From the NCBI RefSeq assembly GCF_013315695.1, contig NZ_CP054353.1: a DNA stretch of 64,000 nucleotides; one strand, given 5' to 3'. The notes below the pieces were generated by a model. That model did not search any database and had not been told where the DNA came from. It worked only from the letters and a program-made list of their open reading frames with translations. Numbering within the stretch: position 1 is the stretch's first letter; each line of letters starts with the position of its first letter. The position numbers and the translations under genes were made by a program. Of this stretch, positions 4,078 through 45,034 are shown one piece after another. Origin of the DNA: Escherichia coli (GTDB lineage: Bacteria; Pseudomonadota; Gammaproteobacteria; Enterobacterales; Enterobacteriaceae).

Positions 4078-4325
4078 AATTCATTCTTCACTTTGAACAT
4101 ACTTAAATCTTTAATGCAATTGTTCAGTTCTTGCGCATTTATATCTGTGATGGCAACCACAGTTTGACTCTATGAGCATGAACAAACGCAACCGTGAAAA
4201 TCAAAATAGCATAAATTGTGATCTATTCGTCGGAAATATGTGCAATGTCCACCTAAGGTTATGAACAAATTAAAAGCAGAAATACATTTGTTCAAAACTC
4301 ACCTGCAAAACTGAACGGGGGAAAT
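4078..4325. promoter_or_regulatory. lsrR-lsrA divergent promoter/operator region with a CRP-like site
   Basis: 248-bp AT-rich intergenic region between divergent lsrR and lsrA; TGTGA-N6-CCACA motif (tctgtgatggcaaccacag) near 4145-4160. Sites inferred, not tested. Confidence 0.5.
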
Positions 4326-5861
4326 ATGCAAACGAGTGATACCCGCGCGTTACCGCTACTTTGCGCCCGCTCGGTTTATAAACAGTATTCAGGAGTTAAT
4401 GTCCTGAAAGGCATCGATTTTACGTTGCATCAGGGGGAGGTCCACGCCCTGCTCGGCGGCAATGGTGCCGGTAAATCGACGTTAATGAAGATTATTGCCG
4501 GTATTACCCCTGCTGATAGCGGTACGCTGGAGATTGGGGGCAACAACTACGTCAGATTAACGCCAGTTCATGCTCATCAGCTGGGCATTTATCTCGTTCC
4601 CCAGGAACCGCTGCTTTTTCCAAGCCTGTCGATAAAAGAAAACATCCTGTTTGGTCTGGCAAAAAAACAACTCTCCATACAGAAAATGAATAACTTGCTG
4701 GCGGCGCTGGGCTGCCAGTTTGATCTGCATAGTCTGGCAGGATCGCTGGATGTCGCCGATCGCCAAATGGTGGAAATCCTCCGCGGGCTGATGCGCGATT
4801 CGCGAATTCTGATCCTCGATGAACCTACCGCCTCGCTTACTCCCGCCGAAACCGAACGTTTGTTTATTCGCTTGCGGGAGTTGCTTGCTACTGGCGTGGG
4901 TATTGTTTTTATCTCGCATAAGCTGCCGGAAATTCGCCAGATTGCCGACCGAATTAGCGTGATGCGCGACGGAACCATCGCCTTAAGCGGCAAAACCAGC
5001 GAACTGTCTACCGACGACATTATTCAGGCCATTACGCCAGCGCTACGGGAAAAATCGCTCTCTGCCAGCCAAAAATTATGGCTGGAATTACCTGGCAACC
5101 GCCCACAACATGCCGCGGGAACGCCGGTGCTGACACTGGAAAATCTGACCGGCGAAGGTTTCAGGAATGTCAGCCTGACGCTCAATGCCGGAGAAATTCT
5201 GGGCCTGGCTGGGCTGGTGGGAGCCGGACGCACAGAACTGGCCGAGACGCTCTATGGTCTGCGTACTTTGCGTGGCGGACGCATTATGCTGAATGGTAAA
5301 GAGATCAATAGATTATCCACCGGAGAACGTTTACTGCGCGGTCTGGTTTATCTGCCGGAAGATCGCCAGTCATCCGGACTTAATCTCGATGCTTCACTGG
5401 CGTGGAACGTCTGCGCCCTTACTCATAACCTTCGTGGATTCTGGGCGAAAACCGCGAAAGATAATGCCACCCTGGAACGATATCGTCGGGCGCTGAATAT
5501 TAAATTTAACCAACCGGAACAAGCTGCGCGGACCTTATCCGGCGGCAACCAGCAAAAAATCCTGATTGCCAAATGCCTGGAAGCCTCGCCGCAAGTATTG
5601 ATTGTCGATGAGCCGACGCGCGGCGTGGATGTCTCGGCGCGTAATGATATCTACCAACTGTTGCGCAGCATCGCCGCACAGAATGTGGCTGTGCTGCTTA
5701 TCTCCTCTGATCTCGAAGAGATCGAACTGATGGCAGATCGCGTGTATGTGATGCATCAGGGCGAAATTGCCCACTCTGCACTGACCGGGCGCGATATTAA
5801 TGTCGAGACCATTATGCGCGTTGCCTTCGGCGATAGTCAGCGTCAGGAGGCGTCATGCTGA
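4326..5861 (+). CDS. lsrA: LsrA, AI-2 ABC transporter ATP-binding protein
   Basis: 511 aa with duplicated ABC ATPase motifs ([17 protein letters not shown]); first gene of lsrACDBFG. Confidence 0.95.
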
Positions 5862-41303: not shown

Positions 41304-42587
41304 TTAAAGACTTCTGGAAGGTTGCGCAGCTCTGACAACACGAAGTTGATCTTCCGCAGCGTCTTCCAGCGCACTTAAATCACGGTCTTTCACTTCTGGC
41401 ATTTTCAGCGCAGAGATTAAACCAATCACTGAATATGCCATGATCATAATGGCGATCGGATACCAGGATTCCGTCATGGTGCAGAAAATACCCGCCAGGA
41501 TAGGACCAAAACCGGAAGCGATAAGACCACCAATTTCTTTAGAAATAGCCATCCGGGTAAAGCGGTTTTTACAGCCGAACATTTCTGCCATGGTAATGTT
41601 TTCCAGAGCAAATAATCCCAGCACCGCACAGTTATGAATCACAATCAGTGCAACCATAATGGTGCTCGGGGCATAGCTTTTATCTACGATGATAGAAAGC
41701 ATTGGCCACGCCAGCACAATCGCAGAGGTATTCATAATAATATACGGGATCCGGCGACCTATTTTATCGGATAACCAACCAAGGAACGGAATGGTCATAA
41801 AGCCGAGAATCGAACTGATCATCAATGCATCTGTTGGAATTGCTTTGTTAAACAATAACGTCTGCACTAAATAGCCTGCAAGGAAAGTCTGAATTAAACC
41901 GGAGTTACCAGCCTGACCAAAACGCAGCCCTGTTGCCAGCCAGAAGGATTTGCTCTGGAACATGCTACCAGCAGGTGCAGGTTTTGCTGTCGGTTGGTTG
42001 CTGTCGTTAACCTTCTCAAAGACCGGGCTTTCTTTCAGATTCATACGCAACCAGATAGCAAAGACCATCACGACAACGCTCGCCAGGAACGGTATACGCC
42101 ATCCCCACGCCAGCAGTTCCTCTTTACTGAGAATGAAGAACATAAAGGCCCAGATTGCCGTTGCGCTTAAGGTTCCGCAGTTAGTTCCCATAGCCACAAA
42201 TGAGGAGATAATTCCGCGCTTACCTTTTGGCGCATATTCCGCCAGCATCGTACCGGCACCGGAAATTTCCGCGCCTGCCCCCAGCCCCTGAATAATACGC
42301 AGCGTCACCAGCAAAATTGGCGCAAACACACCAATTTGTGCATAGGTCGGCAGCACACCAATTAAGGTGGTACAGATCCCCATCATAGTTATGGTAATAA
42401 AGAGCACTTTTTTACGCCCGATTCTGTCGCCCATTTTGCCGAAAATAAATGCTCCGACAATACGCGCCACATAACCTGCACCGTAGGTTCCCATTGCCAG
42501 AATTAACGCCATTGCCGTTGATGATTCAGGAAAAAATATTTCATGAAACACTAACGCTGCGCCGAGCGAATATAACTGGAAATCCAT
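41304..42587 (-). pseudogene. ydfJ: MFS metabolite:H+ symporter YdfJ, 5'-truncated at the prophage junction
   Basis: 427-aa ORF begins MDFQLYS, i.e. inside the conserved N-terminal EWxDF region of this transporter family; prophage-side DNA starts immediately upstream. Confidence 0.7.
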
Positions 42588-43190
42588 AATTCACAGGTGT
42601 TTTTTCCCATCCTGTGGTTTCCTTGGCGTTTTCTAGGTTTTTTCAGATAGTTGCATTTTTTAAAAAGCATCCTAAGTTCGATCTCAGTGTCTATCTGGGG
42701 CCTATTTCTGTCCCATATATGCCCCAAAAAAACTCCTCAACAGATAAGTAGTTTTTTCATGGAGTTACGCGTAAAATCAATAACGGCTGGAAATCATTCA
42801 ATACTCGCACTATCGAAAAATTTACCAGCCAACCGCAGCACGTTCTTGCATAAGGCGTGTCTGCGGTTTTTCAACTATTCAGATACATCACTCCCATCAC
42901 ATTCATTCCTCCGCATCAAAGGCATATAGGCTATATCACCTTGATATTTTTCTTCTTCAGATAAAAACTGTTATCTATGTATACTTTTAAACCCAATCCG
43001 TGTAGAGTCTCTGCATAAGATAGTTTGCAGTTGCCACTTCAGCTTGCGCCATAAACCGCCTGATTTTTGCCGCCATCTGTTAGCATTCCTGTATACCTGA
43101 AACGACAATGTTTATCTACGAACTTTAAGAACACCCAGGATAAAAATTGTCAACTATATCATATATAACACATTACTAATTCGAGGCTAT

Positions 43191-43304
43191 ATGAACAGCA
43201 TACTGATAATCACTTCGCTCCTTATCATATTCAGCATTTTTAGTCATGCTCTAATAAAATTAGGGATTGGCATATCCAATAACCCAGACAAAACCGATGT
43301 ATAA
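43191..43304 (+). CDS. Candidate small hydrophobic protein, 37 aa
   Basis: ATG with RBS (cgaggctatATG); translation [37 protein letters not shown]; prediction only. Confidence 0.3.
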
Positions 43305-43372
43305 GTCAACATATCCTGAATCAGACATACAATATCGCAATGAAAATCAATAATATTTTAAGGAATATATTC

Positions 43373-43606
43373 ATGAAATCAAAAGACACCCTAAAGTGGT
43401 TCCCTGCGCAGCTTCCTGAAGTCAGAATTATCCTAGGGGATGCTGTAGTGGAAGTAGCAAAACAGGGAAGACCTATCAATACCAGAACATTGCTTGATTA
43501 CATTGAAGGAAACATAAAGAAAAAATCATGGCTGGATAACAAAGAATTATTACAAACAGCGATATCAGTTCTTAAAGACAACCAAAATTTAAATGGTAAA
43601 ATGTAA
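43373..43606 (+). CDS. ydfK: YdfK, prophage cold-shock-associated protein
   Basis: Translation MKSKDTLKWFPAQLPEVRIILGDAVVEVAKQGRPINTRTLLDYIEGNIKKK... recognised (YdfK/YnaE family). Confidence 0.9.
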   Translation: MKSKDTLKWFPAQLPEVRIILGDAVVEVAKQGRPINTRTLLDYIEGNIKKKSWLDNKELLQTAISVLKDNQNLNGKM

Positions 43607-43922
43607 TATAATAAACTTACTTTTTTATCATTTTTCCACTTTAACAACATTTTGCTCCACTTTTCCACGACCAAACAACTTGAAATCTGGTTAAAATAAC
43701 ACGCAACACTATTCTTCTTCCTTGAGTCCGCCCGGAACTCGAAAAACAAACCGAGTTAAAGCCATTTTTCACAAAATCGATTTTGGGTCTCACCAAAATT
43801 ACGGGGTTGCATACGCATTCGTTTATTTTCGAACGTGTACATACAAACATGCACAAAAATAATCAAAATTATTTTCTGAGATGCATTATGATATGAACAC
43901 CAATTTCGTATAGAGTCTCACT

Positions 43923-44513
43923 ATGTCTCGAATTTTTGCTTACTGTCGGATATCAACGCTGGATCAGACCACCGAAAATCAACGCCGGGAAATCGAAAGT
44001 GCAGGTTTTAAAATCAAACCTCAGCAAATAATCGAAGAACACATTAGCGGCTCAGCAGCAACCAGTGAGCGTCCTGGTTTTAACCGGTTGCTTGCTCGCC
44101 TGAAATGTGGTGATCAATTGATTGTGACAAAACTGGATCGCCTTGGTTGTAATGCAATGGATATCAGGAAAACAGTGGAACAACTGACCGAAACAGGTAT
44201 CAGAGTGCATTGCTTAGCATTGGGGGGCATTGACCTGACCAGTCCAACAGGAAAAATGATGATGCAAGTAATTTCAGCAGTCGCTGAATTTGAACGAGAC
44301 CTTTTACTTGAACGCACTCATTCCGGGATAGTAAGAGCCCGGGGCGCAGGGAAACGTTTTGGTCGACCACCTGTGTTAAATGAAGAACAGAAACAGGTGG
44401 TATTCGAACGGATTAAGTCAGGTGTAAGTATAAGTGCCATTGCCCGGGAATTCAAAACCTCGCGGCAAACCATTTTAAGAGCCAAAGCAAAACTTCAGAC
44501 ACCTGACATATAA
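43923..44513 (+). CDS. pinQ: Serine-recombinase DNA invertase (Pin/Gin/Hin family)
   Basis: 196 aa; N-terminal resolvase catalytic domain (YCRISTLDQ) and C-terminal HTH; prophage context. Confidence 0.9.
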
Positions 44514-44740
44514 AAAATAATCTCGGTGTGAGATGCCTTACGTCTTCCAAGCCCCCTTCCTTGCCGTAAATGGAAAGATACATCTAATTATAGAATTTAT
44601 ATGTTTTACCCTACGGCAGTGCTGGCCATTCAATATCCTGTGCAGTTGACGTATCAACACGGTTCAGCAACACCCGATACTTCTTCCAGGCTTCCCGCAA
44701 CGAGGTTTCTTCCTCCGTTGCATATACAGCTCACCTTTTT

Positions 44741-45034
44741 TCACCCACGATTAACCAACAGCCAGACCAGCAGACACGCCACCACCGGCACAGCAAAATC
44801 CATCAGGCTTGCCACATCCCACGCACGCGGATCAAAACCGCCCCACCACGGCATATTCATACGCTTGCCATGCCCGAACATTTCAATCCAGCGATATTCT
44901 GCCTGGGTATGTTCACGCGCAATGAAGAACGTACAACCAGCTATCGCCCCGTAAGCCCAGTTTCCGGTAAAAAGACCAACCAGTACCTGCGCAGCCACAG
45001 CACAAAGTGCATGAAGGAAAGGTGTTATATCCAT
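44741..45034 (-). CDS. Hypothetical small membrane protein, 97 aa
   Basis: Two hydrophobic segments flank a charged W/R-rich loop; start 11 nt after the stop of the 234-aa ORF. Confidence 0.5.
   Translation of the reverse strand: MDITPFLHALCAVAAQVLVGLFTGNWAYGAIAGCTFFIAREHTQAEYRWIEMFGHGKRMNMPWWGGFDPRAWDVASLMDFAVPVVACLLVWLLVNRG

Follow-up and report, generated by a model that had tools for sequence, protein, structure and literature searches.

YnfT, a conserved 37-residue protein with a predicted membrane helix, is encoded at the tail-fibre-adjacent end of the Escherichia coli prophage Qin

The ynfT gene at the end of prophage Qin

We analysed a stretch of 64,000 nucleotides of Escherichia coli DNA (NCBI RefSeq assembly GCF_013315695.1, contig NZ_CP054353.1), hereafter called the window. 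On its plus strand an open reading frame (ORF) of 37 codons begins with an ATG at position 43191 and closes with a TAA stop ending at 43304 (43191..43304), as seen in the sequence and in the ORF list. A Shine-Dalgarno sequence, GAGG, can be read on the same strand at 43183..43186, 4 nt before the ATG. A first-pass annotation made from the sequence alone had proposed a 37-amino acid ORF with a plausible ribosome-binding site at exactly these positions, and every element of that proposal was recovered. The assignment as a coding sequence (CDS) draws on the ORF list, the RefSeq annotation, family HMMs and dN/dS. The ORF had also been placed in the AT-rich end of a prophage just upstream of ydfK. 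This agrees with the surroundings: GC content is 0.32–0.37 over approximately 42900–43950 against 0.45–0.53 on both flanks, and ydfK (43373..43606, plus strand), which encodes the 77-amino acid cold-shock protein YdfK and is the downstream neighbour in lambdoid phages, starts at 43373 after a spacer of 68 nt. About 600 bp upstream of the ORF, the truncated host gene ydfJ (41304..42587, minus strand), labelled 'MHS family MFS transporter YdfJ, incomplete, missing N-terminus' in RefSeq, marks the junction between chromosome and prophage. The 'cryptic prophage Qin' feature of K-12 begins at the position that matches this junction.

An ORF of this size is not exceptional in such DNA. In the 1.3-kb prophage end at 42588–43922 we counted five ATG-initiated ORFs of at least 37 amino acids, compared with 3.6 ± 1.7 in first-order Markov (Markov-1) simulations. 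The length of the ORF alone is within chance expectation. Because 37-codon ORFs are expected by chance in this region, its reality depends on other evidence, namely conservation, family membership and published experiments.

A megablast search with positions 43000–43700 found a match in 2807 of 5426 complete E. coli genomes (about 52%). There the annotation reads 'ynfT: YnaM/YnfT family protein', and RefSeq places ynfT at this position in thousands of genomes. In strain 300709 (NZ_CP025903.1) the ynfT CDS equals the window ORF base for base and sits between truncated ydfJ and ydfK/pinQ. In K-12 MG1655 (NC_000913.3), ynfT is b4748 of the cryptic prophage Qin, at matching coordinates, and a twin gene, ynaM (b4744), adjoins ynaE/pinR in the Rac prophage. 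The window protein is identical to both K-12 YnfT and K-12 YnaM. At the DNA level the ynfT region of the window, which comes from a non-K-12 strain, is 98.1% identical to MG1655 Qin, and its ynfT carries the three synonymous bases of the Rac copy. The K-12 and window genes thus share the protein, the position between truncated ydfJ and ydfK, and the same neighbours (ydfK/ynaE, pin and tfa), with no difference of substance.

The protein matched Pfam PF23676 (YnaM) with 96.2 bits against a cut-off of 27 over residues 1–37 of 37, and NCBIfam NF041477 (NF041477.1) with 63.9 bits against a cut-off of 35 over residues 2–34 (profile positions 1–34). It also matched PHROG 35882, a family of unknown function. 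Membership of the YnaM/YnfT family is borne out by these HMM scores, by a helix and tail in a protein of 37–39 amino acids, by the orthologous position in Qin and by purifying selection on the frame. The identity of the ORF with ynfT, a known gene of the cryptic lambdoid prophage Qin, is virtually certain. The candidate ORF of the first-pass annotation is a genuine small coding gene, but it is not new: RefSeq and UniProt both contain ynfT, Pfam and NCBIfam each have a model for it, and detection of the protein dates from 2018.

That detection came from VanOrsdel et al. (2018), who identified small proteins by chromosomal SPA-tagging and immunoblotting and in whose table the exact 37-amino acid sequence appears twice, once as ynaM (ynaE/ttcC) and once as an ORF between ydfJ and ydfK at 1632890–1633003, called 'ynfQ' (PMC6001520). 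Both ORFs were unannotated positives in a tetracycline ribosome-profiling screen (PMC6001520). Epitope tagging and ribosome profiling, which the first-pass annotation had suggested as checks, have therefore already been published with positive outcomes. Weaver et al. found the level of YnaM-SPA to exceed that of most newly detected small proteins, but in their retapamulin and Onc112 data YnaM lacked a ribosome peak at the start codon (bioRxiv 511675). Tagged YnaM was abundant in LB rich medium without cold shock and comparatively high in both growing and stationary cells, with no growth defect reported. Published work thus establishes that E. coli K-12 makes a stable protein from the ynfT ORF.

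Between −52 and +22 relative to the ATG, the Qin and Rac copies of K-12 do not differ (L002, 2338–2414, and the Rac counterpart in L003), so ribosome footprints at the start site are not uniquely mappable. Loss of multi-mapping reads is a plausible reason for the missing retapamulin and Onc112 peak.

The y-ome paper lists ynfT among uncharacterised genes and has the Qin cluster begin at 1632890 (PMC11551758). Our literature search on ynfT and ynaM returned no paper giving a function, localisation, binding partner or phenotype, and a study of small proteins under Mg limitation does not mention ynfT (PMC11429745). The names in use are in conflict, as the table of the discovery paper gives 'ynfQ' for K-12 1632890–1633003 where RefSeq and the y-ome paper give ynfT. 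At present ynfQ denotes another Qin gene, one induced by cold shock, and literature or expression look-ups by name may therefore return the wrong gene.

Conservation of the reading frame and a predicted membrane helix

A comparison with Salmonella phage 118970_sal3 was informative for the coding status of ynfT. The ynfT-ydfK block of this phage is 79% identical at the DNA level, and its copy of ynfT keeps all 37 codons. By the Nei-Gojobori method, ynfT showed a dN of 0.099 and a dS of 0.92 (omega 0.107), compared with omega values of 2.05 and 0.83 in the two off-frames, both of which contain stops. Homology sets in only 49 nt before the ATG. At the nucleotide level the ORFs agree at 81% of positions, against 60% for the spacer to ydfK, 51% for those 49 nt and 34% for the sequence still further upstream. 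The start context, GAGG followed by ATATATG, is kept while the sequence around it has diverged. Five changes in the Salmonella copy fall within the invariant tail of the protein, at G25, I26, S29, N31 and T35, and all are synonymous. The three differences between K-12 Qin and Rac within the ORF are likewise synonymous and in third positions. Of 40 E. coli matches taken at even intervals along the ranking, 39 have ynfT annotated as an intact CDS. These substitution patterns indicate that the peptide sequence is under purifying selection. The first-pass annotation had named conservation of the frame in related prophages as a check, and the frame is indeed kept, both in the Salmonella phage and in the alignment of 19 sequences described next.

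The family is narrow. A profile search of 1.84 billion representative proteins yielded just 24 matches, mostly fragments, with two full-length relatives of 38 amino acids. When one genome per species was scanned with a degenerate motif, the YnaM/YnfT family turned up in Escherichia and Citrobacter only, and named cluster members add Enterobacter to its range. From the two 38-amino acid relatives and their cluster members we built a family alignment of 19 sequences, reaching down to 41% identity. The Citrobacter and Enterobacter members (e.g., WP_423362766.1 and WP_286088348.1) are 38–39 amino acids long and only 41–46% identical to YnfT, yet they keep the hydrophobic helix and the invariant tail K-x-G-I-G-x-S-N-N-P-D. 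In full, they share with YnfT one hydrophobic helix followed by A-x-[IV]-K-[LIV]-G-I-G-[IL]-S-N-N-P-D-[KR]-x-D. A20, K23, I26, G27, S29, N30, N31, P32 and D36 are invariant across the alignment, and G25 and D33 are nearly so. The sequence of the helix varies among homologues yet stays hydrophobic; the polar tail is the most conserved part. The alignment and the synonymous changes together define a conserved juxtamembrane and tail motif at codons 23–37 (43257..43301, plus strand).

In phage genomes, a tblastn search with the 37-amino acid protein against the phage collection gave no match, probably through low-complexity masking. A DNA search in distant mode found 18 phage records matching the ynfT region, and the ynfT-ydfK block is present in isolated phages including HannyBb, Tritos, Turner, Kati, 2H10 and mEp460_ev081. 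In several human isolates of E. coli (genomes H1–H7; e.g., NZ_CP045277.1, 2331288–2332765), an IS1 insertion splits the ynfT-ydfK stretch. There the match comes in two pieces together with an 'IS1 family transposase', and ydfK appears twice in one record.

The first-pass annotation had described a single transmembrane helix with a polar tail. Helix and tail are both supported, and the membrane location stands as a prediction. The predicted transmembrane helix spans codons 4–22 (43200..43256, plus strand), where the 19-residue Kyte-Doolittle window reaches 2.52 at residues 4–22; homologues give 2.46–2.64. AlphaFold2, run on the family alignment, returned one helix over residues 2–30, with pLDDT values of 93–96 in the first 20 residues and 58 in the tail. 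From these models we consider it very probable that YnfT is anchored in the membrane. According to the positive-inside rule, positively charged residues flanking a transmembrane segment tend to lie on the cytoplasmic side. Near the helix the protein carries charge only at the invariant K23 and in the D33/K34/D36 tail, which under this rule weakly favours a cytoplasmic C-terminus. With so few charges on either side of the helix, the topology read from the sequence is ambiguous.

Prophage neighbourhood and transcription of ynfT

The window was compared by blastn with the K-12 Rac locus (L003), and K-12 Qin was likewise compared with Rac. A block at 42829..44722 (not assigned to a strand) is shared at about 99% identity with the Rac prophage end and comprises the terminator, ynfT/ynaM, ydfK/ynaE and pin. 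Its left edge is a hairpin with a U-run (42831..42871, plus strand), identified by folding, which forms an intrinsic terminator bounding the module upstream. The hairpin has a dG of −20.7 kcal/mol and a z-score of −3.89, and none of 200 shuffled sequences was as stable. It is bulged and followed by UUUUU, and a simple terminator scan missed it. It is also the only piece of the block that is found in HK97, mEp460 and phi458 as well. In phage HannyBb the hairpin stands 292 nt downstream of int, across the attP region, an arrangement that we take to be that of the lambda sib/tI retroregulator.

The hairpin should insulate ynfT from upstream transcription, and the promoter of ynfT should therefore lie between approximately 42872 and 43185. 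Promoter-like matches occurred at chance frequency (seven found against 5.7 expected), and none could be assigned to ynfT. Genomic SELEX predicted an RpoD promoter 'for ydfK' with the sequence TTCCCA-16-GATAAT (PMC3946193). Considered as a candidate for ynfT, it was rejected, as it maps inside ydfJ at 42185 and is thus uninformative on ynfT.

Two sub-threshold RNA matches were seen on the minus strand of this prophage end. At 42834–42971 Rfam gave a match to CssrB (RF02799), an sRNA that Northern blots of Shigella flexneri show at about 180 nt; the score is 28.7 bits, where the gathering score is 76. The alignment is good only for the 3′ hairpin of the model, which is the terminator hairpin at 42831–42871 on the other strand. 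Judging from this alignment, the Shigella CssrB 'sRNA' may derive from a related prophage-end terminator region. Just past pinQ, at 44645–44743, there is a partial match to Rfam IS009, with 65.7 bits where the gathering score is 117. Beyond 44722 the window no longer resembles either K-12 Qin or Rac, suggesting that the Pin-invertible tail-fibre segment is present there as another allele or in another orientation.

Downstream of ynfT, the 68-nt spacer (43305..43372, plus strand) was examined by terminator scan and by comparison with the Salmonella phage. The scan detected no terminator-like site, and a promoter-like site at 43306–43333 is not conserved in the Salmonella phage. For these two reasons ynfT and ydfK are likely co-transcribed in lambdoid phages. 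An 88-amino acid ORF that starts from an ATG at 43340 (43340–43606, plus strand) includes ydfK, and some phage records annotate this long form, among them that of HannyBb with a 267-nt CDS. The extension is not conserved in the Salmonella phage, and the calculated monoisotopic mass of the 77-amino acid YdfK, 8772.80 Da, matches the value of 8772.78 from top-down mass spectrometry (PMC5594050). The ydfK start at 43373 is therefore correct. Like ynfT, ydfK is constrained relative to the Salmonella phage (dN/dS 0.079). Searches with YdfK itself matched neither Pfam nor NCBIfam families, nor PADLOC models, and the closest solved structure was not significant, with a PDB E-value of 0.32. The neighbour therefore offers no hint of what YnfT does.

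Intact lambdoid phages show the order int, attP region, hairpin, ynfT, ydfK and pin, followed on the other strand by the tail-fibre assembly and tail-fibre genes. The distant homologues are found at Mu/P2-like prophage ends (Baseplate_J, Mu Gp48), where they flank the tail-fibre assembly gene on its outer side and are convergent with it; one of them adjoins an Acyl_transf_3 gene. Near the Citrobacter and Enterobacter homologue loci we found neither a ydfK relative (tblastn) nor pin. As the distant homologues occupy tail-fibre-adjacent ends without ydfK, it is the slot and not the link to ydfK that is constant. This constant feature is an accessory ('moron') slot at the att-proximal, tail-fibre-adjacent prophage end, and the linkage to ydfK is confined to lambdoid phages. 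In the Citrobacter portucalensis prophage end (L008), a 68-amino acid ORF lies between the YnaM-like and acyltransferase genes (4165–4371, minus strand), and similar DNA is present in a second locus (L009). With its …AIDGEFRIKRY… stretch this ORF seems to resemble the C-terminal region of UmuD/S24-peptidase proteins and is probably what remains of a gene.

Possible roles of YnfT

Our best explanation overall, held with high confidence, is that the ORF is ynfT and encodes a predicted single-pass inner-membrane protein, most likely of moron type, which would be expressed by the prophage in the lysogen. The protein would consist of one N-terminal hydrophobic helix (approximately residues 3–24) and a short polar tail, G-I-G-x-S-N-N-P-D-K/R-x-D. 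The gene would be transcribed from its own promoter downstream of the terminator hairpin and, in lambdoid phages, probably on one transcript with ydfK. The juxtamembrane K23 and the SNNPD tail may contact a host or phage membrane protein, and YnfT would then resemble small single-pass membrane regulators, or lysogenic-conversion or exclusion factors, and not a toxic pore. We are more tentative about this part of the proposal, and rate a modulator or lysogenic-conversion mechanism at somewhat below an even chance.

MgrB, AcrZ and MgtS are small single-pass inner-membrane regulators of E. coli. YnfT is like them in having fewer than 50 amino acids and a single predicted transmembrane helix and in being stable when SPA-tagged. 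Unlike them, it is prophage-borne and not part of the core genome, and the Pfam scan showed no sequence relationship. With ynfT/ynaM, an uncharacterised small protein of the y-ome is encoded in about half of complete E. coli genomes and is kept under purifying selection even in cryptic prophages. To what was known of it, the present analysis adds the conserved tail motif, the consistent tail-fibre-adjacent position across unrelated prophage types and a likely multi-mapping explanation for the negative profiling result. Tail motif and position provide handles for functional study of ynfT.

The close association with ydfK raises the question of whether the two genes act together. YnfT and YdfK could form a two-gene, cold-inducible prophage cassette in which a membrane peptide and a soluble 77-amino acid protein are co-transcribed and serve one pathway. 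The genes are neighbours on one strand, separated by 68 nt in which no terminator-like site occurs and the promoter-like site is not conserved; the pair is kept in Qin, in Rac, in at least ten isolated E. coli phages and in one Salmonella phage; and purifying selection is similar on both (omega 0.107 for ynfT and 0.079 for ydfK). YdfK and YnaE are, moreover, cold-shock proteins that were detected after refrigeration (PMC5594050). However, the homologues in Citrobacter and Enterobacter prophages have no ydfK relative in the locus, so the link is not obligatory, and YnaM-SPA is abundant in LB without cold shock. We regard the cassette as decidedly unlikely. In a different relation to ydfK, ynfT could be a leader or upstream ORF that controls its neighbour through translation alone, the peptide itself being without function. 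Cold-shock genes often have long regulatory 5′ regions, and ynfT lies directly upstream of ydfK with no terminator between them. An unconstrained peptide always coupled to ydfK is not what we observed: omega is 0.107, five changes in the invariant tail are synonymous, homologues exist without an adjacent ydfK, and the tagged protein is stable and abundant. A leader role is thus very improbable.

The first-pass annotation had also suggested a toxin-like peptide. YnfT would then be a type I-like toxin acting against the inner membrane, with an antisense RNA or mRNA structure keeping it repressed. Like members of the Hok/Gef, Ldr, Ibs and TisB families, some of which are prophage-encoded, it is a small hydrophobic peptide. 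In being small, hydrophobic and prophage-borne it recalls the Hok/Gef peptides in particular, and Qin carries hokD. Antisense transcription across ynfT could start from a weak promoter-like site on the minus strand (43382 to 43355), but this site scores 9/12 and such sites occur at chance frequency. The suggestion found no support in the remaining results. In the Pfam scan at E ≤ 0.1 only PF23676 (YnaM) was returned and no toxin family, and the protein matched none of Hok/Gef, Ldr, Ibs, TisB, ShoB or DinQ. There is no Rfam family over the ORF, and its folding is no better than that of shuffled sequences (z −0.37 on the plus strand and −0.52 on the minus strand), so neither a small RNA nor an unusual mRNA structure is signalled, although a novel antisense RNA lacking structure would escape these tests. 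Type I toxins are tightly repressed, whereas the chromosomally tagged protein is comparatively abundant during growth and in stationary phase, and it is the polar tail and not the helix that is most conserved. A toxin is accordingly improbable. Least of all does the ORF appear to be a product of chance in AT-rich DNA. Although the count of five such ORFs is close to the simulated 3.6, conservation, family membership and published expression (including PMC6001520) have already refuted this reading, whose probability we consider negligible.

Within the preferred reading of YnfT as a moron-type membrane protein, a more specific role can be formulated. As a membrane-anchored peptide that travels with tail-fibre modules, YnfT/YnaM could serve in lysogenic conversion or superinfection exclusion, a role that we consider unlikely on balance. 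PADLOC defence models gave no match for YnfT. The K-x-G-I-G-x-S-N-N-P-D tail would in this case bind an inner-membrane protein that is used by incoming phages or is important in cold adaptation. If true, such a role would explain why the same att-proximal, tail-fibre-adjacent slot is occupied in unrelated lambdoid siphoviruses and Mu/P2-like myoviruses, and why ynfT is intact in the decaying cryptic prophages of half of all E. coli.
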